A DNA stretch of 48,896 bases, taken from contig JBNRMN010000062.1 of assembly GCA_050309605.1 (NCBI GenBank), forward strand, positions 1-48,896, given 5' to 3'. The position numbers and the translations under genes were made by a program. Shown piece after piece: positions 20,964 through 47,740 of this stretch (positions within the stretch are counted from its first letter, which is position 1; each line of letters begins with the position of its first letter). Below the pieces are notes generated by a model. It was not told the origin of the DNA. It worked only from the letters and a program-made list of their open reading frames with translations, and searched no databases. The stretch is from Anaerohalosphaeraceae bacterium. Its GTDB lineage: Bacteria; Planctomycetota; Phycisphaerae; Sedimentisphaerales; Anaerohalosphaeraceae.

Positions 20964-21018
20964 ACTGCTGTTGTGCAGTTATGCAACGGTATGATTTCTA
21001 ATGACGAGGATAGAGACG

Positions 21019-22329: not shown

Positions 22330-22363
22330 GTGGAACGAGATAGATCCTGAATAGAGGTCAGAG

Positions 22364-25300
22364 ATGAATTTGACAAAAAAAATAATGATGCTTATTGTCG
22401 GGTTTTCCGCTGCGATTATGCCTGCACAGGCGGTCACAGAGGACGAAATCGCCAAAATGCGGCAAGCTATGCCGGATGCACCTGTTGTTCAGCCGGAGCG
22501 CCCGCGGCGAATGCTTGTATTTAATCTCAGCCAGGGATTCAAGCACAGCAGTATTCCGTACTGGGCCAAAGCGCTGGAGATTATGGCAGAAAAGACCGGG
22601 GCCTTCTCGATTGAACACAGCGAGGATTTGGCCGTCTTTACACCCGAAACGCTGAGTCGTTTTGATGCGGTGTGTTTTAATAACACCACCGAGCTGAAGT
22701 TGACAGATGACCAAAAAGAAGCGTTGCTGGCGTTTATTAAAAACGGGAAAGGCATCGTCGGCATCCACGCGGCGACGGACAACTTCAAAGACTGGCCTGA
22801 AGGAATGCATATGATGGGCGGCGTTTTTCAGGGACATCCCTGGACCGCCGGTGGGACGTGGGCAATTAAACTGGACGACCCTGAGCATCCTTTGCTGAAA
22901 CCCTTTGCCGGGAAGGGCTTTAAGGTCAACGACGAAATCTACCGCACCAATTTGCCGTATTATTCACGAGATAAGCAGCGGGTGCTGATGAGCCTGGATA
23001 TGAGCGATCCGGCTACCCGCAACGCCAATGGGGTCACGCCGGAGGACATGGATACGGGGATCACCTGGATTAAGCCGTATGGTCAAGGGCGGCTGTTTTA
23101 TTGTTCGCTCGGTCACAACCATCATCTGACGTGGACCACGCCGATCTTGGAGCATTATCTGGCAGGCATTCAATACGCACTGGGCGATCTGGAAGTGGAT
23201 GATACCCCGCTGGGCCAGCCGGCGCCTGAATTGGATGTCGCGGCGGTGCGGTCGCTGGTCGAAAAGATCAAGGCTTACGATTGGGATAAGTCCCGCGCGG
23301 ATTTGACGGCTCTGCAAAGGCTCATTCGACAATACAGCGCCTTTGATAACCATCTTGTAAGAATTGAGCAGTTGATGCAGCCGCTGCTGGCCAAGGACAC
23401 GAGCCGGGCGGTGAAAGATGTTGCGTGTCGAGAATTAAGCATCATCGGTACAGACATCTCCGTGCCGGCTCTGGCTGCGCTGTTGAATGATCCCGAGACC
23501 GAACATATGGCTCGGTATGCCCTTGAGCGGATTCAGGGGCAAAAGGCCGAAGCTGCATTGCTCGACACACTTCTCCAGACCTCGGATACCGGCACGAAGA
23601 TTGGTTTGATTTCTTCTTTGGGGGCTTGTCGCAGCGGCCCGGCGGTCGGCCCGATTGCCCGACTGGCGGCGGATTCGCACGCTGATACGGCTTATGCGGC
23701 AATTCAGGCGCTCGGCTTGATTGGTACCTCGGAGGCAGCGGCGGCACTGCGGAACCTGCACTCATCATTGGTTTCTGATCGGCGGCGGCCTGTACTGGAT
23801 GCGATGGCGGTCTGTGCGAATCATCTGTCCAAAGACGGAAAGACGGATGAGGCGTTGTCGCTGTATAAGATACTGTACGCCGACGATAACCCTGCTTTGA
23901 TTCGTGTTGCCGGGTTGACAGGTATTGCTCAAACCAGCCCGGATTCGCTTGGCCGTTTGTTGCCGGCGGCGATTATTCAGGATGATGCGGTGTTGCAGGC
24001 CGGAGCGATTCGACTGGTGGCTCAGGTACAGGATACGGCCTTGATCGAGGCGGCTGTGTCGGCACTGTCTGAGCTTTCCGATGCGGCTAAGGTTTCGCTG
24101 CTGGCGGCGCTGGCGTCCAATGGCCACCCTGCCGGACGTCAAGCGGGCCGGGATACGATGACCAGTGCAGATCAAGCAGTGCGGATTGCCGCCTACCGCA
24201 CCCTGGCCGTGACAGGCAACAGCGATGACGTCCTGCCGCTGGCACAGGCGGCGGCAGGAACAACCGACCGCAACGAAAGTCAGGCGGCTCGTGAGGCACT
24301 GTACCAGATACGGGGAGCCGACGTGACTGCTGCGATTGAACGGGGCATTCGTCAAATGAGCGATTCGTCCGGCAGCGATCGAGTCGCGGCTGAATTGATT
24401 CGTGCAATTCCCGAACGCGGCATTACGACGGCCAATTCTTTATTGTTTGAAATGGCGCGGCATTCGAGCGGCCGTGTGGCTCAAGAGGCTGTCCGTTCGC
24501 TTCAGGCGACGGTGACACAAAACGATATGCCCGCTGTTATGCGTCTGCTGGCCGATCGTCCCGGTGCGGCGGTTGAGACCGTTGCGATTGCGGCCGCCGA
24601 GCAGATTTCCGATCACAATCGTCGGGCCAGGGCGCTGTTGGCCGCCCTGGAGACGGTTGAGTCATCGGCTGCCAAGGCGTCGATGATCCGTGTGATCGGC
24701 CGGCTGGGCGATTCCCAGGCTGTCGGTACGATTCGACGTTTGCGAGATTCGTCTGATGATATCGTCAGCCAAGCGGCTTTTCGAGCCATGCTGGAGTGGC
24801 CGGGAATGGACTTTTTTGATGAAATTCAGGAACTGGCCATAAGCGGGCCGGAAGGCACAGATAAAGTGCTTGCCTTTCGAGCCTATATTCGTTTGTTGGC
24901 CGGGGCCAGGAACAAGACCGATGCGCAGATTGTCCAGGACCTGGCCGAGGCAATGACCTTGACCAATCGGGTACAGGAACAGCGGTTGATCCTGGCGGCC
25001 CTGGGCGAACGTGGCACCTTAAGCGCACTGCAATTGGCTCAGCAGTATTTGAACCGTTCTGACCTAAGGGCTGAAGCGGAGGTGGCGGTGACAGGCATTG
25101 CGCAGCGGCTGATGGAACGTGATCCGGAAGCGGCCGCCAATGCGTTACAGGCGGTCGCTGAACAGACCGATAACACGACACTCAGACAACGGGTTCGCAG
25201 GCTTGTCTCACAGGCTGAAAGTCGTCTCGGACATATTCTCGTCTGGCAGATCAGCGGCCCTTACACCCAGGACAATAAAGGACCCGAAGAGCTTTTTGAT

Positions 25301-25702
25301 GTTCCGTTTTTGCCGGAGACAGATCCGGGACAGGCCCAGTGGCAACCGATGTCCGCTTCCGGCGGCCGGGGGAATTTTTGGCTGATGGATTTGAACCAGG
25401 CGATTGGCGGTTCTGATCGTGTTGCGTATGCCCGCACGATAATTGTATCGCCGCAAGAAACACAGGCAAGATTTGAGCTTGGCAGCGATGACGGGGTCAA
25501 GGTCTGGCTTAACGGTCAACTGGTTCACCGAAACAACGCACTGCGTGCGGTTCAGCAGGGCGAGGATAAAGTGGATGTTCAGCTTCGTCGCGGCGAGAAT
25601 GAGGTTCTTCTGAAAATCACGCAGGGCGGCCAGGACTGGGGATTTTGCTTGCGTGTGACCGATCTCGACGGTTCGCCGATGCGCGGCCTTCGTGTCAAAT
25701 AA
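22364..25702 (+). CDS. Exported ThuA-domain plus HEAT-repeat plus C-terminal beta-sandwich protein
   Basis: Signal peptide; ThuA-like GFKHSSI, GIHAATD, GRLFYCSLGH; long Ala/Leu-rich HEAT region; LGSDDGVKVWLNG in a PA14/galactose-binding-like domain. Confidence 0.82.
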   Translation: MNLTKKIMMLIVGFSAAIMPAQAVTEDEIAKMRQAMPDAPVVQPERPRRMLVFNLSQGFKHSSIPYWAKALEIMAEKTGAFSIEHSEDLAVFTPETLSRFDAVCFNNTTELKLTDDQKEALLAFIKNGKGIVGIHAATDNFKDWPEGMHMMGGVFQGHPWTAGGTWAIKLDDPEHPLLKPFAGKGFKVNDEIYRTNLPYYSRDKQRVLMSLDMSDPATRNANGVTPEDMDTGITWIKPYGQGRLFYCSLGHNHHLTWTTPILEHYLAGIQYALGDLEVDDTPLGQPAPELDVAAVRSLVEKIKAYDWDKSRADLTALQRLIRQYSAFDNHLVRIEQLMQPLLAKDTSRAVKDVACRELSIIGTDISVPALAALLNDPETEHMARYALERIQGQKAEAALLDTLLQTSDTGTKIGLISSLGACRSGPAVGPIARLAADSHADTAYAAIQALGLIGTSEAAAALRNLHSSLVSDRRRPVLDAMAVCANHLSKDGKTDEALSLYKILYADDNPALIRVAGLTGIAQTSPDSLGRLLPAAIIQDDAVLQAGAIRLVAQVQDTALIEAAVSALSELSDAAKVSLLAALASNGHPAGRQAGRDTMTSADQAVRIAAYRTLAVTGNSDDVLPLAQAAAGTTDRNESQAAREALYQIRGADVTAAIERGIRQMSDSSGSDRVAAELIRAIPERGITTANSLLFEMARHSSGRVAQEAVRSLQATVTQNDMPAVMRLLADRPGAAVETVAIAAAEQISDHNRRARALLAALETVESSAAKASMIRVIGRLGDSQAVGTIRRLRDSSDDIVSQAAFRAMLEWPGMDFFDEIQELAISGPEGTDKVLAFRAYIRLLAGARNKTDAQIVQDLAEAMTLTNRVQEQRLILAALGERGTLSALQLAQQYLNRSDLRAEAEVAVTGIAQRLMERDPEAAANALQAVAEQTDNTTLRQRVRRLVSQAESRLGHILVWQISGPYTQDNKGPEELFDVPFLPETDPGQAQWQPMSASGGRGNFWLMDLNQAIGGSDRVAYARTIIVSPQETQARFELGSDDGVKVWLNGQLVHRNNALRAVQQGEDKVDVQLRRGENEVLLKITQGGQDWGFCLRVTDLDGSPMRGLRVK

Positions 25703-25741
25703 ATAGTGTAAACAACAAAAATTAACTATGGAGATACAATT

Positions 25742-27112
25742 ATGAAATCCAAGAACCCCCAAACGTTGACACGACGTGATTTTCTCGGTTCGGCAGCGAC
25801 CGGCGCTGCGCTGTTTACTTTTATTCCCGGACGTGTTCTGGGTGCCAACGGGGCAGTCTCGGCCAACAACAAGCTGAATATCGCCGGTGTCGGCGTCGGC
25901 GGGATGGGCAAGAATAATTTAGAGCAAATGCAATCAGAGAATATCGTTGCGCTGTGCGATGTTGATTGGGACTATGCCAAAGGAGTTTTCGAGAAATATC
26001 CCAATGCCAAGCGGTACAAAGATTACCGCAAGATGCTCGATGAGATGGGCAATCAGATTGATGCGGTAGTCATTGCCACGCCGGACCATACGCATGCCGT
26101 GGTGGCGATGGAGTGTATGCGTCGCGGCAAACACGTCTATGTCCAAAAACCGCTGACCAAGACGGTCTATGAGGCGCGTAAGCTCACCGAGGCCGCTCGT
26201 CAATACAAGGTCGTTACCCAGATGGGTAACCAGGGACACAGCGGCGACGGGATTCGCAATATTTGTGAGTGGATTTGGGACGGCGCCATCGGCCAGGTGC
26301 GTGAGGTGCACGCCTGGACGAATCGTCCGGTCTGGCCGCAGGGAATGGCTCGGCCTACAGAGCAAATGGCGGTTCCGGAGACGCTGGACTGGGATCTATG
26401 GATCGGGCCGGCGCCGATGCGCCCTTATCACCGCGCCTATCACCCGTGGGACTGGCGCGCATGGGTGGATTTCGGTACAGGCGCCCTCGGCGATATGGCC
26501 TGCCATGTGATGGATCCGATTTTCTGGGCGCTGAAACTGAAATATCCTGTGGGTGCGCAGGGCAGCTATGTCGGCAACGTGGAAGAGCACTGGAGGAAAA
26601 TCGGTGTGGAAGAATCGTATCCGCTCGGTTCGATCATCCATCTCGATTATCCGGCGCGGGAAGGGATGCCGGCGGTGAAAGTGCATTGGTATGACGGCGG
26701 ACTGATGCCGGAACGCCCGGACGAGCTGGAACACAGCCGGCGGATGGGTGACAGCGACGGCGGCGTGTTGTTTGTCGGCGACAAAGGCAAACTGATGTGC
26801 GGCTGTTACGGGCGTCGTCCGGAGCTGATCCCGTACTCACGAATGCGCGAGTTTCAGCGGCCTGAGCCGACGCTCGAACGCATCAAGACCAGTCATGAGA
26901 TGAACTGGGTCAATGCCTGCAAAGCGGGAACCGAGGCCTCGACGCCGTTTGACTATGCCGGGCCGTTTACGGAAATGGTGCTGATGGGCAATCTGTGTCT
27001 GTTCCGTCCCGGTGAGAAGATCGTATGGGACGGCGACAATATGCAGTGTACAAATATTCCCGAACTGAACCAGTACGTCAACCCCCCGTATCGCGAAGGG
27101 TGGACGCTTTAA
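25742..27112 (+). CDS. Tat-exported Gfo/Idh/MocA oxidoreductase (glycoside 3-dehydrogenase-like)
   Basis: TRRDFLG, GVGGMG, TPDHTH, QKP, TQMGNQG and GALGDMACH. Confidence 0.92.
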   Translation: MKSKNPQTLTRRDFLGSAATGAALFTFIPGRVLGANGAVSANNKLNIAGVGVGGMGKNNLEQMQSENIVALCDVDWDYAKGVFEKYPNAKRYKDYRKMLDEMGNQIDAVVIATPDHTHAVVAMECMRRGKHVYVQKPLTKTVYEARKLTEAARQYKVVTQMGNQGHSGDGIRNICEWIWDGAIGQVREVHAWTNRPVWPQGMARPTEQMAVPETLDWDLWIGPAPMRPYHRAYHPWDWRAWVDFGTGALGDMACHVMDPIFWALKLKYPVGAQGSYVGNVEEHWRKIGVEESYPLGSIIHLDYPAREGMPAVKVHWYDGGLMPERPDELEHSRRMGDSDGGVLFVGDKGKLMCGCYGRRPELIPYSRMREFQRPEPTLERIKTSHEMNWVNACKAGTEASTPFDYAGPFTEMVLMGNLCLFRPGEKIVWDGDNMQCTNIPELNQYVNPPYREGWTL

Positions 27113-27140
27113 GATAATCCTATCCAAGCAGGAGTTTGCC

Positions 27141-28559
27141 ATGACGAAGTTATGTTTGCAAACGGGTGGTATGATGATGGTCTTGACGATGAGTGCGGCG
27201 CTTCAAGCTGAAATGTCCCATCCGGCGACGGATGTCTATGACGGCTGGCGACTGGGTACTCAGGCGTGGTCGTTTAATCGGTTCACATTTTTCGAGGCTG
27301 TCGATAAAACGCGCGAACTGGGGCTGAACTGGATTCAGGCGTATCCCGGCCAACGGGTATCACCGCAGATCGATGCTCAAATGGGATTTGATTTGCCCGG
27401 CGAGATACGTGAGCAGATTAAAGCCAAACTGGCCGAGGCCAATGTGTCCATAGCGGCATTCGGCGTTGTCGGAGTGCCGCGCCAGGAAACGCAGGCCCGG
27501 CGCCTGTTTGAGTTTGCCAAAGCAATGGGTATTGAGGTGATTGTGTCCGAGCCGGCAGAAGATCAGTTTGATTTGATTGATACGTTGTGTCAGGAATACC
27601 AAATCAAGCTGGCGGTTCACAACCATCCCAGACCATCGCACTACTGGAATCCGGATACGGTCTTGAAAGTCGTTGAAGGCCGCAGCAAGTGGCTTGGCGC
27701 GTGTGCTGATGTGGGGCATTGGGTGCGCAGCGGCCTGGATCCGGTCGAATGTCTCAACAAGCTCGAAGGCCGTATTCACGACATTCATATCAAGGAAATT
27801 GATACGAATGTCGGTCACGATGTGGTGTGGGGAACCGGTCAGGGGCGCGTCAAAGGCATTCTTGAAGAATTGCATCGACAGGGTTATAAAGGGACATTTG
27901 CCATTGAATATGAGCATAGTTGGGACAATAATGTGCCGTTGATTCGCCGGAGTGTTGCTTATTTCAATGAAGTGGCCTCATCGCTGAATCCGAGCGGCTG
28001 GAAGGCTGTTTTTAAGTCGGATTTATCCAATGCCGATTTTGAGCCGGAAAGCTGGACGTTTCAGGATGGTGTTCTCGAACTGAAAGGCGGCGGCGACATC
28101 TGGACAAAAAGCCAATACGGCGACTTTATACTGGACTTTGACTTCAAAGTTGATCGTCGCACGAACAGCGGCGTCTTTTTGCGAGCGGCTAACCACGAAT
28201 GGCTGCCGTGGGTCGAAGTTCAAATTGGCGACACCTATGGACAGGATATTTCCCGGCATATATGCGGTGCTTTATTTGACGTTCAAGCGCCGTCTGTCAA
28301 TGCGGTTAAACCGGCCGGCCAATGGAATCGGATGACGATTTGGGCGCAGGGGCCAAAAATCAAAGTCGCTCTGAACAATCGGGTGATTATTGATGTAAAT
28401 CTGGATGACTGGACCGAAGCCGGCAGGAATCCGGACGGTTCACGCAATAAATTCGATATTGCCTACAAAGATTTGCCGCGCAAGGGTTTTCTGGGTTTTC
28501 AGGACCATCGCGACGGCACAAAGGTGTGGTATCGTAATCTGAAAATCAAAGAACTATAA
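27141..28559 (+). CDS. Exported fusion of AP_endonuc_2 sugar isomerase/lyase domain and DUF1080 (3-keto-disaccharide hydrolase/hydratase) domain
   Basis: N-part QAWSFNRF, HNH, DVGHW, HIKE, IEYE; C-part NSGVF, EVQIGD, GQWN, GFQDH..VWYRNLKIKEL. Confidence 0.85.
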   Translation: MTKLCLQTGGMMMVLTMSAALQAEMSHPATDVYDGWRLGTQAWSFNRFTFFEAVDKTRELGLNWIQAYPGQRVSPQIDAQMGFDLPGEIREQIKAKLAEANVSIAAFGVVGVPRQETQARRLFEFAKAMGIEVIVSEPAEDQFDLIDTLCQEYQIKLAVHNHPRPSHYWNPDTVLKVVEGRSKWLGACADVGHWVRSGLDPVECLNKLEGRIHDIHIKEIDTNVGHDVVWGTGQGRVKGILEELHRQGYKGTFAIEYEHSWDNNVPLIRRSVAYFNEVASSLNPSGWKAVFKSDLSNADFEPESWTFQDGVLELKGGGDIWTKSQYGDFILDFDFKVDRRTNSGVFLRAANHEWLPWVEVQIGDTYGQDISRHICGALFDVQAPSVNAVKPAGQWNRMTIWAQGPKIKVALNNRVIIDVNLDDWTEAGRNPDGSRNKFDIAYKDLPRKGFLGFQDHRDGTKVWYRNLKIKEL

Positions 28560-28579: not shown

Positions 28580-29941
28580 ATGCAAAATGGTTTAAATCGT
28601 CGTGATTTTATGCGTTCCACGGCTGCGATTGGCGCGGGACTGTTCGTCAGCGGCGGCGCTTTGGGTCAGACCGGCGCCAACAAAGACACCCTCAATGTTG
28701 CTCTGATCGGCGCCGGTGAGCAGGGACAGGTCCTCTCGGATGCCATTCTTCGTCTCGGACGCGATTCCGGTATTCGGTTTGTCGCGGTCTGCGACATTTG
28801 GGAGCAGGTCAATCTCAGGCGTGTATCGCGTCGTCTGGATGCCTATAAGGCGTTCGGCCATAAAGGGACGCCCTATGTGGATTACAAGGAAATGCTGGAT
28901 ACCGAAGAAGACCTGGACGCCGTGATTGTGGCGACGCCGGATTTTTGGCACGCCGAGCATACGATTGCGGCATTGGAGAAAGGGTGCCATGTGTATTGCG
29001 AAAAGGAGATGAGCAATACGATCGAAGACGCCCGCCGTATGGTTGAAGCCGCTCGAAAAAGCGGAAAACTGCTTCAAATCGGCCATCAGCGGCGAAGCAA
29101 TCCGCGGTATCTGCACTGTTATGATAAATATATTCGTGAAGCGCAGTTGCTGGGCCGAATCACGACGATCAACGGCCAGTGGAATCGCAGCCGCTCTTCG
29201 TGCGAAGACCTCGGCTGGCCGGACGGAACCGCCATCGATGAGGCCGTGCTTAATAAGTTCGGCTTTAAGGATATGCATCAGTTTCGCAACTGGCGCTGGT
29301 TCAAGGGGTTGGGCGGCGGTCCGATTGTCGATCTGGGAAGCCACCAGATTGATATTTACAGTTGGTTCCTCGATGCCCAGCCGACAAGCGTTATGGCCAG
29401 CGGCGGCATCGACTACTGGAGCGGTCACGAATGGTATGATAACGTGATGGCGATCTATGAATACAAGACCAAGCTCGGTCCGGTTCGTGCGTTTTATCAG
29501 ACGCTGACCACCAACAGCGCCAACGGCTACTTTGAGTCGTTTATGGGCGATAAGGGAACATTGGTGATCTCTGAGTCTGCCAATCGCGGCAGCGTGTACC
29601 GTGAAAACTGGGTTCCGGAAGACGAATGGCAAAAATGGGCAGATCGAGGTTATCTGGTAAAAGTCGAGGGGCTTGCCGCCGCCGACGCCGCCGCCGATGA
29701 GGCCGTGCTGGACGTACGCGAAGGGACGGTTGCCGCTGCTGAATACAGTATTCCTGTGACGATGGATGTGCCGTATCATCAGCCGCATCTGGTCAACTTC
29801 TTTGATGCGATTCGCGGCAAGGCCAAGCTGACCTGCCCGGCGGAAATTGGTTACGAAACTGCTGTTACCGTGCTGAAGGTCAACGAGGCGGTTGAGAAAG
29901 CCTGTCGTTTGGAATTCAAACCGGAAGAATTTCAGGTCTAA
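28580..29941 (+). CDS. Tat-exported Gfo/Idh/MocA oxidoreductase
   Basis: NRRDFMR, IGAGEQG, TPDFWH, CEKEM, GHQRRS and DLGSHQID. Confidence 0.92.
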   Translation: MQNGLNRRDFMRSTAAIGAGLFVSGGALGQTGANKDTLNVALIGAGEQGQVLSDAILRLGRDSGIRFVAVCDIWEQVNLRRVSRRLDAYKAFGHKGTPYVDYKEMLDTEEDLDAVIVATPDFWHAEHTIAALEKGCHVYCEKEMSNTIEDARRMVEAARKSGKLLQIGHQRRSNPRYLHCYDKYIREAQLLGRITTINGQWNRSRSSCEDLGWPDGTAIDEAVLNKFGFKDMHQFRNWRWFKGLGGGPIVDLGSHQIDIYSWFLDAQPTSVMASGGIDYWSGHEWYDNVMAIYEYKTKLGPVRAFYQTLTTNSANGYFESFMGDKGTLVISESANRGSVYRENWVPEDEWQKWADRGYLVKVEGLAAADAAADEAVLDVREGTVAAAEYSIPVTMDVPYHQPHLVNFFDAIRGKAKLTCPAEIGYETAVTVLKVNEAVEKACRLEFKPEEFQV

Positions 29942-29964: not shown

Positions 29965-31794
29965 TTGAATCGGAACATTCTGATTATCGGGTTGCTTGCC
30001 GTTGCCGGCAGCCTCAGTAGTGCTCAGGACGATGTTGAGCTGATCGGTGACCATCCCGACGGCAGCCGCAGTGTGCCGGTTCATCTGATTGAGCTGTATG
30101 ATGAGGATGGACGACAGATTCGAGCGACGGATCAAGACCCCAAACCGTTCTCGACGCGGCAGACCTGCGGCCAGTGTCACAGTTATGAGACGATCCGTCA
30201 GGGATGGCATTTTAATGCCCATAAGGCCGATGTGCCGGCGGGGCGGTCCGGTGAGCCGTGGGTACTGACGGATTTCAGGGCACGCACCCTGATCCCTGTA
30301 TCGGGACGCGCCTGGCCGGGGACATTCAGGCCGGAACAGATCGGGCTGACGTCCTGGGATTTCATGACTCGCTTTGGGATGCATTTCCCCGGCGGCAGTT
30401 ACGGTGAAATGGAAGCCGAAGACCCCGAACAGGTCATTCGTCAAAACATCAGCGGCACGTATGAAATCAATTGCCTGATGTGCCACCATGCGGATTTTCG
30501 TCAGGATGCCAGCGAAACGGCGATGCAATTGGCACGTCAGAATTATCGATGGGCCGCAGCCGGCGGCAGCGGAAAGGCGATCATCAGCGGCGTGGCGATG
30601 GAACTGTCGAGCTTTTTCGATCCGGAGTTTGACGAAGGCATCAAAACCACCTATCGGGACGGGGTGTTTGATAAGGACAATAAAGTCTTTTTCGACATTG
30701 CCGCCACCCCGCAGGATCGTCAGTGTTATTATTGCCATTCCAACCATGATACGCGGGTCAGCGAATATGAGGAATGGACGCGCGACGAGGATGTCCATTT
30801 GACCTCCGGGATGACGTGTACAGATTGCCATCGCAACGGTTTGGATCACTGGATTGCACGCGGCAATGAAGATGCGCACGGCACGGCCAAAACGCTGTCC
30901 TGCAAGGGGTGTCATCTTCTGGATGATGCCGAGATGATCCCGCAGGCCGGCCGTCTCGGCGCGCCGATGCCGCGTCATGCCGGGATCCCGCCGATTCATT
31001 TCGACAAGATGAACTGCACGGCTTGTCATTCGGGAACATGGCCCGAAGAACAGCCTGGACGATGGCGAACCGCCCGGATTCATCGGCTTGGTCTGCACGA
31101 TAAGCACAAGCAGGATTTGCGTCTTCCGCATATCTATGCCCCCGTTCTGCTCAAGGGCCAGGACGGTAAAATCGGCGCCCATTATCTGATGTGGCCGGCG
31201 TTTTGGGCGACCCTGAAAGATGATGAGCTGGTGCCGATTCCGCCGGAAACGGTTCGAGCGGCGGCGGGCAGGATTCTTTTGGCTGATGTCGAATTGGTTG
31301 ATGACTGGCGGCCGCTGACCGAGGAACAGATCGGCGATGTGCTGACGTTGCTCCGGGGCGAACCGGATCGGAGCGATCCGGTGTACATTTCAGGCGGCCT
31401 GCTGTACCGTCTAAACGCCGATGGATCCGTGCAGTCGCAGGAACATTCCGCGGCGGGGGCGTATGCCTGGCCGATGGCGCACGATGTGCGACCGGCTTCC
31501 CAGTCGCTGGGCGTGCGCGGCTGCGCAGATTGTCATACAACCGACTCGCCGTTTTTCTTTGCCGGAGTGCAGCGGGATACGCCCATTCAGGGCGATAAGC
31601 AATTTGTCCAAATGGTCACACTTCAGGGCATCGATCGGCTCTATATGTGGTTATTTAATGCCTCATTCGTGTTTCGGCCTGTCCTGAAGGTGGTCGCGTT
31701 TACAGCGTGCGGCCTGATCGGGCTGGTGTTGCTGATCTATGGATTGAAAGCCCTGGTCGTGGTCTCCAGGGCCTGTGCACAGGAGGCTGAATAA
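29965..31794 (+). CDS. Membrane-anchored multiheme c-type cytochrome (7 CxxCH motifs)
   Basis: Signal peptide; CGQCH, CLMCH, CYYCH, CTDCH, CKGCH, CTACH, CADCH; C-terminal hydrophobic helix; TTG start after GGAGAAG. Confidence 0.88.
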   Translation: MNRNILIIGLLAVAGSLSSAQDDVELIGDHPDGSRSVPVHLIELYDEDGRQIRATDQDPKPFSTRQTCGQCHSYETIRQGWHFNAHKADVPAGRSGEPWVLTDFRARTLIPVSGRAWPGTFRPEQIGLTSWDFMTRFGMHFPGGSYGEMEAEDPEQVIRQNISGTYEINCLMCHHADFRQDASETAMQLARQNYRWAAAGGSGKAIISGVAMELSSFFDPEFDEGIKTTYRDGVFDKDNKVFFDIAATPQDRQCYYCHSNHDTRVSEYEEWTRDEDVHLTSGMTCTDCHRNGLDHWIARGNEDAHGTAKTLSCKGCHLLDDAEMIPQAGRLGAPMPRHAGIPPIHFDKMNCTACHSGTWPEEQPGRWRTARIHRLGLHDKHKQDLRLPHIYAPVLLKGQDGKIGAHYLMWPAFWATLKDDELVPIPPETVRAAAGRILLADVELVDDWRPLTEEQIGDVLTLLRGEPDRSDPVYISGGLLYRLNADGSVQSQEHSAAGAYAWPMAHDVRPASQSLGVRGCADCHTTDSPFFFAGVQRDTPIQGDKQFVQMVTLQGIDRLYMWLFNASFVFRPVLKVVAFTACGLIGLVLLIYGLKALVVVSRACAQEAE

Positions 31795-32451
31795 ATGTTC
31801 AGAATCATATCGCTTATCGTATTTGCGGCGGTTGTGGGCGGCGTTGTGCTGCATGGTCTGCTGTTCCCTTGTAGTCGGGGACGGCGTTTTACCGGGGGTG
31901 CGATCATCCGAAAAAAAGTGCATTTGTTTACACTGCTGTTTCTGGAGCAGTCGCTCAATTGGGGCGGACGGTTGCGGAAGCTGGCGTTTTTACTGGGCTT
32001 GCTCAGTTTTGCCGTGCTGCTGTTGACCGGTTTTCTGCCCCCGCTGCTGGGCGGACGGCTGGAAGGATACTGGCTGATGCTTCACGCGACATTTGCACCG
32101 ATTTTCATTGCCTGTGCGGCGGTGGTGGTCGTAACCGGCGCCGAGCGGTATCGACTGCTCAAGTACGATGCCGAGAACCTAGCTGATTTGTTGAAAAACC
32201 GAAAAATCAAAAACACTTGCTGGCTGACCGACTGTTCGGCGGCGCCGAAAGCGGGCTTTTGGCTGCTGGCGGCGTTGTCGCTGCCGTTGACGCTGACGAT
32301 GGTCATCAGTATGACCACGCTGTTCGGCACGGAAGGGCAGGAATGGCTTTTTGAGGCCCATCGCTGGAGCGCGCTGGCATTTGCGGTGGTGGCGGTGTTA
32401 ACATTGTATGTTCTGATTCGCAAAGAGATCAGGAAGGATACGCAAATCTAA
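31795..32451 (+). CDS. Cytochrome b-like (FdnI/HyaC-type) integral membrane protein
   Basis: About five hydrophobic segments with His in or next to helices (VLHG, KVHLF, LMLHATF, EAHRWS); starts directly after the cytochrome stop (TAA-ATG). Confidence 0.6.
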   Translation: MFRIISLIVFAAVVGGVVLHGLLFPCSRGRRFTGGAIIRKKVHLFTLLFLEQSLNWGGRLRKLAFLLGLLSFAVLLLTGFLPPLLGGRLEGYWLMLHATFAPIFIACAAVVVVTGAERYRLLKYDAENLADLLKNRKIKNTCWLTDCSAAPKAGFWLLAALSLPLTLTMVISMTTLFGTEGQEWLFEAHRWSALAFAVVAVLTLYVLIRKEIRKDTQI

Positions 32452-32477: not shown

Positions 32478-33851
32478 ATGGCAAACGAAAGCTTACCGAA
32501 TTATCTGGCGGCGGCAAAACCTAATCCGATGGAAAATCGGGCGCCGTGGTACAAAAATACGGCGCCGTCTTATGCGGGCATTTTTCTGTCTGTGCCGTTT
32601 ATGGCCGGCATGGCCGGTGCGCTTCAGTTCGGCAGTGTATGGGCCGGATTTGTGGGGTTGCTGATTGGGGCGCTGTTCTGTTTTCTGCTGTACTATGTCC
32701 CCGGCATACTCGGTTTCAAAACGGGAATGCCGCTGTATGTGGTCGGCTCGTCAACGTTCGGCACGCAGGGCGGAATTGTGATGCCGGGGTTATTGATGGG
32801 GGCGCTTCAGATCGGTTGGCATGCGGTGTTTACGTTTTCGGCGGCCTCATTTTTTATGCAGGCCATCGGTCGGGACGCCGGGCCTAACTCGGCATTTTTC
32901 TGGCTGATTTGTGCGGTTTGGGGATTGATTTTTGCGTTTGTGGGGGCGGTTGGCATTAGCTGGCTGGGCTGGCTGTCAAGCTGGATTCCCGTCTTTCCTT
33001 TGGCCGCCATTGTGATTGCGGGGTTTGCCAATATGGGCGGCATCGGCAAATTCGAGTCGGTCGCCGACATCGCTCGCTCGGCGGCCATCATTCCCGTCAT
33101 GGGGCTGGGTGCGTTTGCGGCGATACAGGCCGCGGCCGGCTTTTTTGCGACGGCCGGTGCTGCCGGTGCTGATTTTACGATGAACAGTCGTTCTCAGAAA
33201 GACGTGGTGCTGGGCGGATTTTGGGGCATTACGATTGCGGCGCTGGTCGCCGGTACGTTTGCCCTGTTTACGATTGCCGGAGCCGTCGGCAACAATCCGC
33301 AACTGGCGATTCAGCACGGGGTGGGAACGGATAAAATGGCCGGAATTCCGCTGTTTATCAGCTCGCTCGGCGAGGTCGGCGGCTTATCGAAGATCATGTT
33401 CTGGGTGTTCTTGATTGCCTGTATTTGTCCGACGGGTTTTTGTGCGTTTTTGGCGGCCAATTCATTCTCGACGATGTTCCCCAAGCTGCCGCGTACCGGT
33501 ATGACGATGGCAGCCGGCGTCGTGGGCGTGATTCTGGCTGCGACGGGGCTGGCCAACAATCTGGCGGTGTTCTTCGGCTTGATCGGGGCTTCTTTCGGTC
33601 CGATTATCGGCGCCATGACCGCTGACTATATCCGCAGCGGAGGCTGGAGCGGGCCGCGGAAAGGGATTAACTGGGCCGGCTATATCGCTTGGGCTGTGGG
33701 GTTTGTTGTGGGTATCTTTGGTGTCCTTCCAGGCGTCGGATTCAGTTACGGCCTTGAAACGCTCGTCTCGTTCATTCTCGGATTCTCAATCTATCTGCTG
33801 GCCGCGGAAATGGGACTGGAGCCGGAAACGGTATCCTTGGAAAACAAGTAA
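32478..33851 (+). CDS. NCS1/cytosine-permease-family transporter
   Basis: About 12 TMs; GFKTGMPLYVVGSSTFGTQG, QIGWH, ADFTMNSR, SFGPIIGAMTADY; strong RBS AAGGGAGG. Confidence 0.75.
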   Translation: MANESLPNYLAAAKPNPMENRAPWYKNTAPSYAGIFLSVPFMAGMAGALQFGSVWAGFVGLLIGALFCFLLYYVPGILGFKTGMPLYVVGSSTFGTQGGIVMPGLLMGALQIGWHAVFTFSAASFFMQAIGRDAGPNSAFFWLICAVWGLIFAFVGAVGISWLGWLSSWIPVFPLAAIVIAGFANMGGIGKFESVADIARSAAIIPVMGLGAFAAIQAAAGFFATAGAAGADFTMNSRSQKDVVLGGFWGITIAALVAGTFALFTIAGAVGNNPQLAIQHGVGTDKMAGIPLFISSLGEVGGLSKIMFWVFLIACICPTGFCAFLAANSFSTMFPKLPRTGMTMAAGVVGVILAATGLANNLAVFFGLIGASFGPIIGAMTADYIRSGGWSGPRKGINWAGYIAWAVGFVVGIFGVLPGVGFSYGLETLVSFILGFSIYLLAAEMGLEPETVSLENK

Positions 33852-34100: not shown

Positions 34101-34877
34101 ATGAAAAAATTGGTGTGGTTGAGTGTGGTACTGACAATCGGTCTGGTCGCTTTTGGATGCAAAAAAAGTTCGCCTCCTCCGGCCCAACCGGAAGACGAGC
34201 AGGCAACCCGTCCGGTCGATAGTGAACCGGCGACATCAACGGAACAGGTTCCCGCGACCTCGGATACTGAACCGGCAAACGAGGATGAGAATCTTGTTCC
34301 GATACCGCTGACGTTGCCCAAGCCGATGTTTGTCGGAACGCCGCAGAATCTGGAAGGTGTGCAGAATCTTGAAAAACCGCTCGGCAGGCCGCGCCCGCCG
34401 TTTCTGGCGCCCGAAGGGGTCACTAATGTGGCGCTCAACAAGCCGGTGACCAGCTCGGAGCCGTTTCCGATAATGGGTGAGCTGGAGATGATTGTCGATG
34501 GCGACAAGGAAGCCACCGAAGGCAGTGTGGTGGAACTGGGGCCGTTTGCCCAGTGGGTGATGATTGACCTTGAAAAAGAACACGACATTTATGCCATTGT
34601 CGTCTGGCACTATCATCGCACGCCGGCGGTGTATTTCAATGTGGTCGTCGAGATTTCCGACGATCCGGAATTTATTGAATCGACGGTGGTCTTCAACAAT
34701 GATCACAACAATTCGCTGGGCCTGGGTGTGGGAACCGACCAAAACTATGTTGAAACCTCGGAAGGCAAGCTCATCGATTGCAAAGGGATCAGCGGTCGCT
34801 ATGTTCGCCTGTGGAGCGAGGGCAACAACCAGAACGACTACAACCACTATATTGAAGTGGAAGTGTATGGCAAATAG
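34101..34877 (+). CDS. Lipoprotein with Pro/Ser/Thr/acidic linker and discoidin (F5/8 type C)-like domain
   Basis: MKK..VAFGC lipobox; NVALNKPVTSS, WVMIDL, GRYVRLWS, HYIEVEVYG. Confidence 0.75.
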   Translation: MKKLVWLSVVLTIGLVAFGCKKSSPPPAQPEDEQATRPVDSEPATSTEQVPATSDTEPANEDENLVPIPLTLPKPMFVGTPQNLEGVQNLEKPLGRPRPPFLAPEGVTNVALNKPVTSSEPFPIMGELEMIVDGDKEATEGSVVELGPFAQWVMIDLEKEHDIYAIVVWHYHRTPAVYFNVVVEISDDPEFIESTVVFNNDHNNSLGLGVGTDQNYVETSEGKLIDCKGISGRYVRLWSEGNNQNDYNHYIEVEVYGK

Positions 34878-34883: not shown

Positions 34884-37412
34884 ATGAGGTTATCACGGAC
34901 AGGATGTCTGCTGTTCGGTATGACGCTTGCATTTGGCCTCTGGTTCAGGATTTATGCCCTGGACCTGAGGCCGATGCATACCGATGAAGCGGTTCATGCC
35001 GAAAAATTCGGTGCTCTGCTGGATGAGGGCTTTTACGCCTATGACCCCGACGAGTACCACGGTCCGACGCTGAATTATCTGACGCTTCCGGTGGCCTGGT
35101 TCCGCGGACAAGCGTCCTATATCGACATTGACGAAAAAACACTTCGCTTTGTGCCGGCGATTTTCGGAACGCTGCTTCTATTGACCCCGCTTTTGTTTTT
35201 TGACGGTATTGGTCTGCGCGCGGCGGTGTTTTCAACCGTGCTGCTGGCGTTCTCGCCCGCTTTTGTCTATTACAGCCGCTATTATATTCAGGAGATGCTG
35301 CTGGTTTGTTTTACGGCCGGCTTTCTGGGCGGGATGTGGCGTTATATGCGGTCTTGTCGCCTCAGATGGATCCTCTTTGCCGGCGTGTGTGCCGGTCTGA
35401 TGCACGCGACGAAAGAAACTTGTGCGCTGACGTTTGCCGCGGTGATGCTGGCGGCGCTGCTGACGCTGGTCTTGGCGGGCTGGCCGGTGCGTTTTTCGCT
35501 GTACAACCGGAATGGACTGTTGGGCCTGCTGGCCGCGGCAGTGACCAGTATGGTCTTTTTTTCTTCCTTCGGCAAACATCCCGACGGCATTCTGGATTCG
35601 GTGCTGACCTATACCTACTGGCTCAATCGCGCCGGCCAGCACAGCATCCACGCTCATCCGTGGTATTGGTATCTGGATTTAATGGTGTGGGTTGAGTTTT
35701 TCCAGCCGATTTCGTGGAATGAAGACATCATTGCTGCCGGCGCCCTGTTTGGATTCTTTTTTGCATTTCAACGTCGCCCAGGGCTGTCGCATCGCCGCCC
35801 ATTCGGTGTGTTTCTGGCTCTGTTTACGTTGATTTTAACGATTATTTATTCGAGCATCCCATATAAAACGCCGTGGTGTGCGTTAAATTTTATGTACGGG
35901 ATGGTTTTGCTCGCGGGGTTGGCCGCCGACCGGATGCTGCGCTGGGATGTGATGCGATGGCAGAAAATCATGCTGTGCATCGTACTGGCCGGCTTCGGGG
36001 TTGTCAGTCCGCTGCTTCAGTCGGTGTTTCTGAACACCCGGTACGCCGCCCATCCGAGCAACCCGTGGGTGTATGCTCACACCGGCCCGGATGTGTTCAA
36101 GATCGAGCAGACTGTCCGCCGCGTTGCGGACGTCCATCCGGACGGTAAGCGAATGTTTATTCAGGTTGTTGCGCCGGGACATGATTACTGGCCGCTGCCG
36201 TGGTATCTGCGGGATTTTGAGGCGGCAGCCTATACCGACACCGCCGATTCGCATTTGCCCAATGCGCCGTTGGTGATTGGCCATGTCGATGTCAAGCAGG
36301 ATGTGCTGCGAAAACTGTATGAGACCCCGCCGCCGGGTCAGCGTGAACTTTATGTGCCGTTGTTTGATGAGTATATCGAGCTGCGCCCCGGCGTCGAATG
36401 GCGGGGCGTGGTGACGCGATCCCTGTGGGAAAAAGTATTTGCTCAGCCGCCGCCGGCCGTTGAATTGTCTCATGATCAAGCGAATGAGGGACCTATTGTG
36501 CATATTCAGCCCGACCGTAACGAGATTTTGAAAACGGCCAAGTTCAGCCATCAGGCAATGAATACGGTCTTTGAAATCTGGATTCAGCATGCGGACGGCT
36601 CCTATGCCGGCCGTGCCGCCCGTGCGGCATTTAACGAGGTCAATCGGCTGGAGCAGGAGCTGAGTCGTTTCATTGAGAACAGCGATATTGGCCGCATTAA
36701 TCAGGCGCAGCCGGGCGAATCGGTGGTGGTCTCGCCGGATACCATGGGGTGTTTGAAAATTGCCGAAGACGTTTACACACGGACAGACGGCGCGTTTGAT
36801 ATATCGGTCGGCCCGCTGGTTCGGCTTTGGCGGCAGGGCGAACCGACTCCGGATCAGATCGCCCGACTGTTGCCGACGCGAGAGAGCAGACCGTTTGAAC
36901 TCAACACAGAAGAGCTAACCGTTACCGTAGTGCGGTCGGATTTGGAGTTAGATTTAGGCGGCGTGGCCAAAGGCTACGCGATTGATCGGATGGCCGAAAT
37001 TTTGGACCAGTGGGCCATTGAACATGCCCTGATACACGGCGGAGCAAGCTCAGTGCGCGCGTTGGGGCCGCCGCAAGAAAGGAAGGGCTGGCCGATTCGG
37101 TTGTCCAATCCACACGACCCAGCCCAAACGCTGGTTCGCCTGGCGTTAGCCGATTGCGTGCTGAGCTGTTCAGGACTTCAGCGAGGGGGGCATATCATCA
37201 ATCCTGCCGCCGGACACCCCGTCTCCGATAGAAGGGCGGTCTGGCTGCTGACGGATTGTTCCGCAGCTCAAGCCGACGCCCTGAGTACCGCTTTTATGGT
37301 GATGCCAATCGAGGCGATTGAACAATTTGCCGAAGAACATCCGCAGGTCGGCTTGATGCTGATTCCGAACGATCCGGATCAATCGCCGTTGAAATGGGGG
37401 CTGTGGCCTTAG
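34884..37412 (+). CDS. Fusion of GT-C membrane glycosyltransferase (TIGR03663/Agl23/PMT-like) and ApbE FAD:protein FMN transferase
   Basis: N-part RPMHTDEAVH, YDPDEYHGP, YSRYYIQE, ATKE, YKTPW, DYWPLPWYLR. C-part (from ~36540) AMNT, GAFDISVGPL, LDLGGVAKGYAID, GHIINP, ADALSTA. One continuous 842-aa frame. Confidence 0.82.
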   Translation: MRLSRTGCLLFGMTLAFGLWFRIYALDLRPMHTDEAVHAEKFGALLDEGFYAYDPDEYHGPTLNYLTLPVAWFRGQASYIDIDEKTLRFVPAIFGTLLLLTPLLFFDGIGLRAAVFSTVLLAFSPAFVYYSRYYIQEMLLVCFTAGFLGGMWRYMRSCRLRWILFAGVCAGLMHATKETCALTFAAVMLAALLTLVLAGWPVRFSLYNRNGLLGLLAAAVTSMVFFSSFGKHPDGILDSVLTYTYWLNRAGQHSIHAHPWYWYLDLMVWVEFFQPISWNEDIIAAGALFGFFFAFQRRPGLSHRRPFGVFLALFTLILTIIYSSIPYKTPWCALNFMYGMVLLAGLAADRMLRWDVMRWQKIMLCIVLAGFGVVSPLLQSVFLNTRYAAHPSNPWVYAHTGPDVFKIEQTVRRVADVHPDGKRMFIQVVAPGHDYWPLPWYLRDFEAAAYTDTADSHLPNAPLVIGHVDVKQDVLRKLYETPPPGQRELYVPLFDEYIELRPGVEWRGVVTRSLWEKVFAQPPPAVELSHDQANEGPIVHIQPDRNEILKTAKFSHQAMNTVFEIWIQHADGSYAGRAARAAFNEVNRLEQELSRFIENSDIGRINQAQPGESVVVSPDTMGCLKIAEDVYTRTDGAFDISVGPLVRLWRQGEPTPDQIARLLPTRESRPFELNTEELTVTVVRSDLELDLGGVAKGYAIDRMAEILDQWAIEHALIHGGASSVRALGPPQERKGWPIRLSNPHDPAQTLVRLALADCVLSCSGLQRGGHIINPAAGHPVSDRRAVWLLTDCSAAQADALSTAFMVMPIEAIEQFAEEHPQVGLMLIPNDPDQSPLKWGLWP

Positions 37413-37418: not shown

Positions 37419-38165
37419 CTAACAATAGATCATTTTTCTTGTCATTCCGCCGTCAATGATAAAATTCTGGCCGGTGATAAAGCCGGCTTTCTCCGAACAC
37501 AAATAAAGGGCCATTTCGGCGATGTCTTCCGGTTGTCCGACTCGGCCGACCGGGTGCTGAGCGTGATCTCGGTCGGTTAATGTCTCTGCGGGGACGTCCT
37601 GCTGCCATGCGTTTGTAACGATCCAGCCCGGGCTGATGCAGTTGACGCGCACCGGAGCCAGACTCATCGCCAGCGAATGAGTCAGCCCTGCCAATCCGGC
37701 CTTGGAGGCTGAATAGGCCTCTGTGTGCGGCTCACTCATCAACGCTCGCGTTGAGGCGATCAGTACGATGGCGCCGGCGGTTTTTTTGAGGAAAGCAGCG
37801 GCGTGCTTGGCACACAAAAACGCGCCGGACAGGTTGACATTCAAAACCTGCTGCCATTGATTGTAGTCAAGTTGCTCAATCGGGCGATTGTCAGCGATAG
37901 CGGCATTATGCACGATCGCATCCAGACGACCGGACCATTGAACCGCCTGTCGTATGACCGCTTCGACATCGGCTTCCATCGCGACATCAGTCTGTACAAA
38001 TAAAGCCCGCTCGGTCTGTTTCAATCTGTCCAAGGCGAAAGTTTTTAACTGTCGGTTTTTCTCGGCCAGTACGACAGAGGCTCCGGCCTGAATAAAACGA
38101 TATGCGATGCACAACCCAATGCCTCGGCCGGCGCCTGTGATGAGAATTGTTTTTCCGGCAACCAT
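37419..38165 (-). CDS. Short-chain dehydrogenase/reductase
   Basis: TGAGRGIG, HNAA, YSASK, VNCISPG, DGG. Confidence 0.93.
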   Translation of the reverse strand: MVAGKTILITGAGRGIGLCIAYRFIQAGASVVLAEKNRQLKTFALDRLKQTERALFVQTDVAMEADVEAVIRQAVQWSGRLDAIVHNAAIADNRPIEQLDYNQWQQVLNVNLSGAFLCAKHAAAFLKKTAGAIVLIASTRALMSEPHTEAYSASKAGLAGLTHSLAMSLAPVRVNCISPGWIVTNAWQQDVPAETLTDRDHAQHPVGRVGQPEDIAEMALYLCSEKAGFITGQNFIIDGGMTRKMIYC

Positions 38166-38178: not shown

Positions 38179-38961
38179 TTACTGTGCGGCTGATTTTGAC
38201 TGGTTTCGCTGGGTACTCAGCACATCGCCGTATTGGTGCTTGAGCCAAATTAAATCCCGCAGCACCTTAATTGCTTCGTGGGCGGGTTTGAGTCGGCTGT
38301 CCGGGTCCCAGGACCAATCCACGGGAAATTCGCATATCCTGTAGCCGTATTTCATTGCCAGCAGGATAATCTCCACGTCAAACATAAATCCGTCGATGGT
38401 ACTGGCTGCATACAGACATCGGGCAATCTGGCCGTCATAGACCTTAAAACCGCACTGCGTGTCGGTCAGATTGGCCAGGCGTTTGAGGTCGTGAATCAGC
38501 AGCCAATGAAACAGGCGCGAGCAAAGCCGACGATACCAGGACTGCGGACGGTGGATGTGGCTGACGCTCATTTTGCGGGAGCCGTGGGCGATCTGGCATT
38601 GGCCGCTTTGAATCAGTTCGAGGCCCGTCATCGCTTCGTTATACGGCACGCAGCAGCCGCTGTCGGCAAACATCACATACCGGCCGCGACTTTCGAGAAT
38701 CCCCGTACGTACCGCGCAGCCTTTGCCGCGGTTGCGTTCCAACCGAAGTACACGCACCGGTACCGGGGACCGAGCGGCGCATTGCTCGGCGATGTCGGCG
38801 GTCTGATCTCGACTGCCGTCATCGGCAATCAGGATTTCGCCGCCGTCGGGGAATCGGGTCAGAAACTCCGACGCAGCCGCAATATCACCGCCGACTTTCC
38901 TGGCCTCCTCAAAGGTCGGAATGACAATCGAAAGACCGTTTGTCTCTGTTGTTGTATCCAT
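38179..38961 (-). CDS. GT2 polyprenyl/dolichyl-phosphate glycosyltransferase (DPM/DPG synthase-like)
   Basis: SIVIPTFEE, DDGSRDQT, NRGKGCAVRTG, DTQCGFK, GFMFDVE. Confidence 0.88.
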   Translation of the reverse strand: MDTTTETNGLSIVIPTFEEARKVGGDIAAASEFLTRFPDGGEILIADDGSRDQTADIAEQCAARSPVPVRVLRLERNRGKGCAVRTGILESRGRYVMFADSGCCVPYNEAMTGLELIQSGQCQIAHGSRKMSVSHIHRPQSWYRRLCSRLFHWLLIHDLKRLANLTDTQCGFKVYDGQIARCLYAASTIDGFMFDVEIILLAMKYGYRICEFPVDWSWDPDSRLKPAHEAIKVLRDLIWLKHQYGDVLSTQRNQSKSAAQ

Positions 38962-47255: not shown

Positions 47256-47729
47256 TTATAGCAGCGGTGAGTTGTTGTTCGATCTCTGCATCCGCTCTTT
47301 GTTCTGGATAGCAAATGCCAGACTTTGCCGTACAGCATCAGACATCGCTATTGATGACATTGTAGCGCCGGTTACCGACTGTATATCGTTTCCCACCTGA
47401 ATGGGATCATTGACGGTTTTGCCGGTGAACCGGCTTAAGAAATCCGGCTGTAAAATGCCGCGTCCTCGTGTTAAAGGATAGGACAGAATTCTGGTTTCCT
47501 GAATCACCATATCCGGATCGATAACGACCTCCAGTGTAAACGTACCGGAGCGCGTCGCGGCTGTTGTTCTGACAGCAAACCGATCCTGTCCATTTCCCGT
47601 TGCTTTATACATCATAAATTGCTCATTTTCTGCAATGATATTGACGGCTGTTTGTTCCGGCCTGCTGCAACTGTTACACATTAAACTCAGCAGTACCGCC
47701 GTACTGAATACCACCGTTTGATGCGGCAT
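47256..47729 (-). CDS. FMN-binding domain lipoprotein (flavinylation substrate)
   Basis: Lipobox-like CNSC; FLSRFTGK..IQSVTGATMSS matches the [S/T]GA[S/T] ApbE flavinylation motif. Confidence 0.78.
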   Translation of the reverse strand: MPHQTVVFSTAVLLSLMCNSCSRPEQTAVNIIAENEQFMMYKATGNGQDRFAVRTTAATRSGTFTLEVVIDPDMVIQETRILSYPLTRGRGILQPDFLSRFTGKTVNDPIQVGNDIQSVTGATMSSIAMSDAVRQSLAFAIQNKERMQRSNNNSPLL

Positions 47730-47740
47730 CGTCTTATCTC

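Follow-up and report, generated by a model that had tools for sequence, protein, structure and literature searches.

Repeated fusion of neighbouring GT-C glycosyltransferase and ApbE genes in a conserved gene set around a Tat-exported dehydrogenase

We analysed a 48,896-nucleotide stretch of DNA from an Anaerohalosphaeraceae bacterium (assembly GCA_050309605.1, contig JBNRMN010000062.1), hereafter the window, and in particular a gene encoding a GT-C glycosyltransferase of the TIGR03663 family and an ApbE flavin transferase as a single polypeptide. Fused, split and re-split loci were found among its relatives and placed on a tree; therefore, the fusion is real, repeated and dispensable, neighbouring operon genes having been joined several times and separated again once. 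The two products may separately mature one exported sugar-oxidation chain, ApbE by placing flavin mononucleotide (FMN) on a dehydrogenase and GT-C by placing a sugar on a lipoprotein, an explanation that we favour tentatively and rate at slightly under an even chance. The fused gene comprises the following parts.

34884 to 37412, forward strand: fused open reading frame (ORF) of 842 aa, TIGR03663 GT-C, linker and ApbE, uninterrupted and with profile matches
34884 to 36443, forward strand: GT-C domain, residues 1-520, with 11 predicted transmembrane (TM) helices and an outer C-terminal domain
36450 to 36491, forward strand: linker, residues 523-536, disordered in the structure model
36528 to 37409, forward strand: ApbE domain, residues 549-842, with F596, K696, S722, S763/H770/D798 and T802 and a short Ser-His loop

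In profile searches of the ORF, TIGR03663 matched residues 11-449 with 179.8 bits (cut-off 126.25) and PF02424 (ApbE) matched residues 559-822 with 193.8 bits (cut-off 25.6), and the PMT and PMT_2 profiles likewise scored above cut-off. PF02424 was present in all 120 homologues listed (38-91% identity, 553-886 aa), 116 of which covered at least 86% of the query; the names attached to them indicate Sedimentisphaerales (Planctomycetota). The sequence-only reading, which had proposed one open frame with two domains, was borne out, and the motifs it had named were all found. The GT-C part exhibits an 11-TM core, an acidic pair in the first outer loop (D34-E35, nt 34983-34988, invariant among homologues) and an outer C-terminal domain, and residues 5-520 superpose on ArnT, outer domain included (Z 29.9, root-mean-square deviation (rmsd) 3.8, 446 aligned). 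The ApbE domain is modelled as a double T-fold (predicted local distance difference test 93.6, TM-score 0.84, Z 32), with residues 549-842 superposing on ApbE/Ftp (Z 32.3, rmsd 2.2, 290 aligned). The model of the whole protein, built on 101 fused homologues, shows 11 membrane helices and a disordered linker at 523-536; its predicted TM-score (pTM) of 0.65 corresponds, in the model, to two independent domains without a fixed interface.

Loop charges in 121 homologues indicate an inner location for the N-terminus and the even loops and an outer one for the DE loop and the C-terminal domain. Together with the helix model and the ArnT superposition, they agree with the earlier placement of the ApbE domain outside the cytoplasm in the full-length product. 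Among the same homologues, the linker is 20-50 aa long without a hydrophobic stretch. An additional TM helix that would flip ApbE inward was ruled out, the maximum 19-residue hydropathy past residue 386 being 1.59.

An assembly error or a one-off mutation has practically no chance of accounting for the fusion. The young-looking fusions P0081 and P0105, which keep the old start Met within the linker, could be seen in this light, but frames longer than 800 aa occur in 25 of the 95 genomes above the TIGR03663 cut-off in an order sample of 151 genomes, and two shorter frames ended by contig edges are also fused. The ORF is not an assembly error because contigs of X3 and X4, from independent studies (two of four sequencing runs compared), cross the junction in frame, where the sequence-only reading had left room for a stop or frameshift; their sole change there is an in-frame 3-nt deletion at 36446. 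The identical deletion is present in X5 on a short contig, and X10 has a gap at the junction. The listed homologues, the order-wide frames and the spanning contigs refute an artefact or a frameshift.

Both arrangements are common, and the fusion recurs beyond one assembly. Among the best 30 loci of the order sample, ApbE is the next gene in 26, fused in three and not found within 1.5 kb in one. A class sample, also of 151 genomes, contains 48 genomes above the TIGR03663 cut-off; by a hand tally of coordinates, ApbE is fused in 12, directly downstream in 27, within 5 kb in four and unlinked in five, so that the ApbE subfamily studied here is linked to GT-C (fused or ≤5 kb) in 43/48. None of 80 wide loci anchored on the lipoprotein (the best 80 of at least 577) shows the fusion. 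A tree of 73 loci requires seven fused/split changes, and in genus g4 a re-split is nested inside the main fused clade. A single fused clade was rejected by the approximately unbiased (AU) test (p-AU 2.7e-5; 38 of the 73 rows; quick LG+G4 tree; unusual composition in 11 rows), which rules out a single origin. A programmed frameshift linking the split genes was also set aside: they meet in plain ATGA overlaps or are separated by short gaps, and the phase varies.

The fused gene lies in a cluster with the following further features, in which the Gfo/Idh/MocA dehydrogenase carrying a twin-arginine translocation (Tat) signal is termed gfo3.

21001 to 28559, forward strand: upstream 3-ketoglycoside-type genes, for a Tat Gfo, a ThuA-HEAT protein, a BT2158-like Gfo, and TIM-barrel and DUF1080 proteins
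28580 to 29941, forward strand: Tat-signal Gfo/Idh/MocA dehydrogenase gfo3, with the codon of loop Thr383, the candidate FMN site, at 29726-29728
29965 to 31794, forward strand: multiheme cytochrome c with seven CxxCH motifs
31795 to 32451, forward strand: cytochrome b-like membrane protein (PF01292 below cut-off)
32478 to 33851, forward strand: NCS1-like permease in a variable slot, occupied by a major facilitator superfamily gene in other genomes
34101 to 34877, forward strand: discoidin (F5/8-type) lipoprotein, likely GT-C acceptor, with the codon of the invariant arm Thr at 34338-34340
38179 to 38961, reverse strand: GT2 resembling polyprenol-phosphate sugar synthases, likely maker of the GT-C donor

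The core of this gene set consists of a Tat-exported Gfo/Idh/MocA dehydrogenase, the discoidin lipoprotein, GT-C and ApbE, frequently joined by GT2 and completed by an exchangeable electron sink, and it occurs in Planctomycetota, Verrucomicrobiota, Acidobacteriota/Aminicenantes and Kiritimatiellota. The best 80 lipoprotein-anchored loci represent Verrucomicrobiota, Aminicenantes, Acidobacteriota, Kiritimatiellota, Lentisphaerota and Planctomycetota; a few more records carry doubtful labels. Forty-eight of them have enough flank, and these contain GT-C in 45, GT-C with ApbE in 42, gfo3 in 33 and cytochrome c in 17. The electron sink is a multiheme cytochrome c/b, a DoxX or an NQR/RNF-like system: among 78 gfo3 loci, 44 have cytochrome c, 27 a DoxX-like gene, none both and seven neither, and in genome G151 and in a Victivallales locus, an NQR/RNF-like operon takes their place. 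Cytochromes were rejected as a core ApbE partner, being absent in Opitutaceae.

Further observations concern the surroundings of these genes. The source genome encodes 13 Gfo proteins with twin-arginine motifs. Upstream of gfo3, PF06439 (DUF1080) and PF01261 (TIM-barrel) score above cut-off, and the BT2158-like Gfo scores 620 bits against NF058561 (cut-off 750). The protein with ThuA, HEAT repeats and a beta-sandwich (22364-25702, forward strand) recurs with Tat Gfo genes in such clusters. A short-chain dehydrogenase/reductase gene (37419-38165, reverse strand) separates the fusion from the convergent GT2, two genes that abut in many relatives. Loci L116, L130, L145, L170, L138 and L146 are labelled Eubacteriales, Actinomycetota or Deferribacteres, and their clusters are Aminicenantes-like or nested among Sedimentisphaerales, which reflects either mislabelling or transfer. 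Farther away (11662-12999, reverse strand), we recognised by eye a tetratricopeptide repeat-rich protein that terminates in a pair of domains resembling the C-terminal domain of RNA polymerase alpha.

The ApbEs of this gene set form a subfamily without export signals. A hydrophobic N-terminal signal is present in 0/77 subfamily ORFs not fused to GT-C, and a canonical control has one (1/78); many of the free proteins begin 2-10 residues ahead of the domain. The full-length fusion would place ApbE outside, and the free ApbE would stay inside. Cytoplasmic ApbEs exist (PMC12052999; published work is cited throughout from excerpts). In two planctomycete genes (L064:1-1986 and L067:3314-5485), ApbE precedes a Gfo/Idh/MocA domain in the same polypeptide, with a twin-arginine signal lying internally between them, and in other planctomycetes (L060, L062), ApbE, DoxX and a Tat Gfo occur without any GT-C. 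The ApbEs of L058, L060, L062 and L063 exhibit an N-terminal RRDFL-type motif without a hydrophobic stretch, which resembles a vestigial Tat signal; two of them lie in an ApbE-DoxX-Gfo triplet.

The sequence-only reading had suggested that two extracytoplasmic activities are coupled or that the membrane domain anchors or supplies ApbE. Neither idea found support, because most relatives keep two genes, the separate ApbE has no signal peptide, the fusion arose several times and was reversed once, and the distribution of ApbE follows that of the Gfo dehydrogenase more closely than that of GT-C.

A free ApbE could also be made from the fused genes. The window contains the following candidate site.

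36486 to 36500, forward strand: candidate internal ribosome-binding site (RBS) at 36486-36490 and in-frame GTG at 36498-36500, predicted to yield a free, signal-less ApbE of 304 aa

An ATG or GTG lies 13-14 codons ahead of the ApbE domain in 18 of 31 fused genes. For a site chosen post hoc in genes related to one another, anti-Shine-Dalgarno energies of ≤-5 kcal/mol are found at 61% of these 18 internal sites and at 12% of 983 other in-frame ATG/GTG codons (medians -5.5 and -2.0 kcal/mol). The window GTG at 36498 scores -6.1, inside the range of the operon's own starts, and the Val codon at this site is GTG in 6/6 genus g1 genes against a GTG background of 26%. A conserved internal Met was rejected, as Met is found at -14/-13 in only 26 of 121 homologues; the signal exists at the codon level only. 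Against an internal start, the other 13 of the 31 fused genes have no ATG/GTG at this site, and the split genes too have a hydrophobic residue there, as expected structurally. On balance, the codon and RBS pattern makes an internal start that yields free ApbE in fused genes somewhat probable.

With regard to the active site, the sequence-only reading had proposed that HGGASS and SCSG, at the GGD and ATSG positions, may alter the chemistry of ApbE. The conserved residues do not bear this out. The Asp285-Ser241-His257 triad of Vibrio cholerae ApbE (PMC12052999) maps to D798, S763 and H770 of the fused protein, and the metal-site residues and Y60 of Escherichia coli ApbE map to D798, T802, K696 and F596. 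Equivalents of D798, S763 and T802 are present in 130/130 subfamily domains, that of H770 in 121/130, and F/Y at the Y60 position in 130/130; this aromatic residue marks enzymes that bind FAD (flavin adenine dinucleotide) rather than hydrolyse it (PMC4767422). Because the FAD and Mg residues and the catalytic triad are intact, the subfamily ApbE probably carries out standard FMN transfer, onto an unusual target, and a loss of catalysis through the GG-x and ATSG changes was ruled out by the kept triad, the Mg ligands and the GGA that E. coli ApbE itself exhibits at the GGD position. The alternative that the chemistry has changed to FAD binding or hydrolysis only, or to another nucleotide transfer, possibly coupled to GT-C, would fit the invariant Ser that replaces the usual Asp/Glu after GG, the Ser-to-His loop of 7-8 residues (119/130 domains; 16 in the canonical ApbE of the genome), the His to Asp replacement in one genus, and the fact that no window-cluster protein has a canonical motif. 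Nevertheless, it is improbable in view of the triad in 121/130, the stacking aromatic of FAD-binding transferases, the missing GGD acid in E. coli, the model without a fixed domain interface and the separation of the genes in most genomes. The flexible Ser-His loop of E. coli ApbE is thought to shift and admit the target Thr (PMC4767422), and a loop about nine residues shorter more likely alters the protein target than the reaction. The catalytic His is replaced in L075, L076, L174-L178 and L090 (by Asp in genus g4), in the lineage that also shows the re-split.

The likely target, judging from gene distribution and loop sequences, is a non-canonical Ser/Thr loop of gfo3, with Thr383 as the candidate residue. 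We infer that ApbE acts on Gfo because, in the class sample, the subfamily ApbE is present in 45 of 46 gfo3 genomes, because three genomes with GT-C and lipoprotein but without gfo3 have ApbEs unlike the subfamily (three of their five matches read as canonical and the remaining two had low subfamily-profile scores), and because ApbE is elsewhere paired with or fused to a Tat Gfo without GT-C. GT-C and the lipoprotein are present in all 46 gfo3 genomes, and 101 of the 151 genomes, in a sample whose kin are not independent, have none of gfo3, GT-C, lipoprotein and ApbE. An RRxF motif is found in 69 of 74 gfo3 proteins, and the loop is of the type DVRET in 31, DVRVT in 10, DVRES in six and DVREGT in four, including the window. 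No canonical [S/T]GA[S/T] target was found among the window-cluster proteins, and one of the 102 other Gfo proteins of the loci has the motif. The four FMN_bind proteins of the genome and its second, signal-bearing ApbE are located elsewhere. Near the end of the window, an FMN-binding protein with a canonical D-x-x-x-x-TGAT (47256-47774, reverse strand) lies beside a porin-like gene (47741-48598, reverse strand) and is probably a target of the canonical ApbE of the genome.

Tat substrates fold and take up their cofactors before export, and flavin chemistry is the basis for converting a hydride into single electrons. Folding and cofactor loading before export are also stated for GFOR (PMC8121099). 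In the explanation that we favour, flavinylation of the gfo3 loop would occur in the cytoplasm before Tat export and be carried out by the free ApbE, of which the fused genes would make a cytoplasmic copy from the internal start; the outer copy may be a side product that the cell tolerates or else a functional second ApbE. The FMN would pass the hydride of trapped NAD(P)H as single electrons to heme or quinone, with exit via cytochrome c/b, DoxX or an NQR-like sink. In parallel, GT2 would supply a lipid-phosphate-linked sugar and GT-C would move the lipid-linked sugar onto the arm Thr of the lipoprotein.

The lipoprotein arm has the sequence L-P-x-x-x-F-x-G-T-P, with Thr in 171/171. Among solved structures, no relative of the lipoprotein was found below E 0.029. 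In a sister family of its domain (120 proteins, at least 32 of them unparsed), the fusion partners are FMN-binding domains or multiheme cytochromes, and 71 of 88 parsed domains carry D-x-x-T-x-A-T in the arm, one of them exactly canonical, followed by G-Y-P instead of G-T-P. This motif is absent from the GT-C-linked lipoprotein, whose invariant Thr aligns with the Tyr three residues past it. From its sequence, the arm looks like a site for covalent groups, which would be FMN in the sister family and a GT-C-delivered sugar here. Members of the sister family (L213:10442-11803, L129:8526-9899, P0273-P0392) combine NqrC/RnfG-like FMN-binding or multiheme cytochrome domains with a discoidin domain whose arm reads D-A-V-T-R-A-T; the operons in which they sit are NQR/RNF-like and belong to Lentisphaerae, Kiritimatiellae and Phycisphaerae, and their discoidin domain is likely a new flavinylated domain, as its motif suggests. 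In L199, L201-L208, L211, L212 and L215, the outer part of anti-sigma-like proteins consists of this discoidin domain in one to four copies; some of these proteins are encoded beside extracytoplasmic function (ECF) sigma genes, and some have lost the arm Thr. GT2 is the usual further neighbour of GT-C, including in anammox-type loci without ApbE (L068); at L068:10363-12363, in one planctomycete family, a TIGR03663 protein has PA14 at its C-terminus and its gene faces a convergent GT2, ApbE and the lipoprotein being absent.

The membrane domain could instead act on a lipid-linked sugar as a flippase or scramblase like Agl23 and be unrelated to the lipoprotein Thr. TIGR03663 is named after Agl23 in NCBIfam, purified Agl23 of Haloarcula hispanica moved lipid-linked oligosaccharide across liposomes (PMC11182771), and the GT2 neighbour persists without ApbE. 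The invariant DE pair and the ArnT/OST-like outer domain with invariant residues are transferase features, however, and GT-C is closely adjacent to the lipoprotein with its invariant Thr in 45 of 48 loci, which makes a flippase doubtful. A different arrangement, in which ApbE works outside on the lipoprotein arm Thr, GT-C anchors or exports it when fused and the free form rides the Tat dehydrogenase, draws on the outer position of ApbE in the full-length product, the flavinylation-type motif of the sister family with its FMN-binding and multiheme fusions, and the persistence of the fusion in family f1. It is unlikely, since the aligned position in the GT-C-linked lipoprotein lacks the motif, ApbE is missing where the lipoprotein occurs without gfo3 and present where Gfo occurs without the lipoprotein, and in L064 and L067 ApbE stands ahead of the Tat signal, which places it on the cytoplasmic side.

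Several points weigh against separate maturation by a cytoplasmic ApbE and a sugar-transferring GT-C. Agl23, the only tested TIGR03663 member, showed flippase activity (PMC11182771), and adjacent GT2 genes are limited to 20 of 48 and 16 of 42 loci. The gfo3 loop ends in Ser/Thr in 74/74 sequences under a pattern written after the sequences had been seen, and its motif is non-canonical: TGAT/SGAT is found in only 4 of 128 homologue loops, those of distant homologues, one of which is the single Gfo case mentioned above, and a fifth flagged row (P0218) is an out-of-family sequence. The fusion in family f1 has been retained across 38-50% divergence, which suggests that the outer ApbE copy may matter, and the His to Asp replacement of genus g4 occurs in fused and split genes alike.

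A more specific role for the lipoprotein was considered from the gene context alone, namely that of a tethered sugar redox cofactor. A glycoside installed by GT2 and GT-C on the Thr of a swinging arm would cycle between hydroxyl and 3-keto forms and ferry hydride from Tat dehydrogenases with trapped NAD (nicotinamide adenine dinucleotide) to the FMN of gfo3, which would feed the cytochrome or quinone. This idea arises because published 3-ketoglycoside enzymes, which bind NAD tightly, are re-oxidised in vitro by added 3-ketoglucoside (bioRxiv 2024.03.25.586180; PMC8121099; PMC9007349) and the in vivo re-oxidant is left open in the excerpts (bioRxiv 2024.03.25.586180; PMC8121099). We regard it as rather unlikely. 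If true, the lipoprotein would be the sugar analogue of a lipoyl domain, FMN would be carried by the corresponding arm in the sister family, and the re-oxidant that periplasmic 3-ketoglycoside enzymes use in vivo would be identified.

Each component resembles a known system. With ApbE/Ftp (V. cholerae 6nxi, E. coli 4xgv, T. pallidum 4ifw), the ApbE domain shares the fold (Z ~32), the Asp-Ser-His triad, the metal-site Asp/Thr, a Lys at the E169 position and an aromatic at the Y60 position; in contrast to them, its free form has no signal peptide or lipobox, its loop is nine residues shorter, a Ser invariably follows GG, the cluster has no canonical target, and it is fused to GT-C or a Tat Gfo. 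The cytoplasmic ApbEs of Klebsiella fumarate reductase and the ApbE domain of kinetoplastid fumarate reductase (PMC12052999) are likewise signal-less or target-fused with a soluble oxidoreductase target, whereas the likely target here is a Tat-exported NAD(P)-binding Gfo/Idh/MocA protein with a non-standard motif. Agl22/Agl23 of H. hispanica (as cited in PMC11182771), ArnT, PMT and oligosaccharyltransferase (OST) share the 11-TM GT-C fold and the DE pair, and Agl22/Agl23 also share a TIGR03663 score above cut-off and a GT2 neighbour; the present protein differs in being bacterial and in its association with redox genes and a discoidin lipoprotein. The 3-ketoglycoside pathway (BT2156-BT2159; LacABC and DUF1080) has Tat Gfo, DUF1080 and TIM-barrel genes in its operon but, as described, no ApbE, GT-C or lipoprotein carrier. 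The extracytosolic flavinylation systems of Meheust et al. 2021 and Huang et al. 2024 also place ApbE by interchangeable membrane electron modules, and an NQR/RNF-like variant is seen here in L213 and L129; with a signal peptide or lipobox in 0/77, the present ApbEs are not classed with the secreted systems of the former.

Terms for the present gene set were not found in the excerpted main texts of Meheust 2021 and Huang 2024, the gene-cluster supplement of PMC8238504, possibly listing fused cases, being outside the search, and "Gfo" and "glycosyl" do not occur in the excerpted text of PMC11334425. In the open-access literature, no paper was found for ApbE with Gfo/Idh/MocA, ApbE with DoxX, flavinylation with discoidin, or Sedimentisphaerales with Gfo/Idh/MocA, and ApbE with glycosyltransferase or TIGR03663 gave unrelated matches only. 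The gene set is undescribed and brings enzymes of known kinds into a new arrangement; the signal-less ApbE subfamily (77/77) and the candidate linker start with RBS in 18/31 fused genes are new. The 2021 flavinylation survey dropped genes without a signal peptide (PMC8238504), so that this subfamily was removed from it by design. The gene set likely provides a new flavinylation motif and a new target class, Tat-exported NAD(P) dehydrogenases, as well as the first candidate acceptor for a bacterial TIGR03663 protein. A single gene may give products on both sides of the membrane, and the proposed chain would offer a testable answer to the question of how periplasmic dehydrogenases with trapped NAD pass electrons to the membrane.

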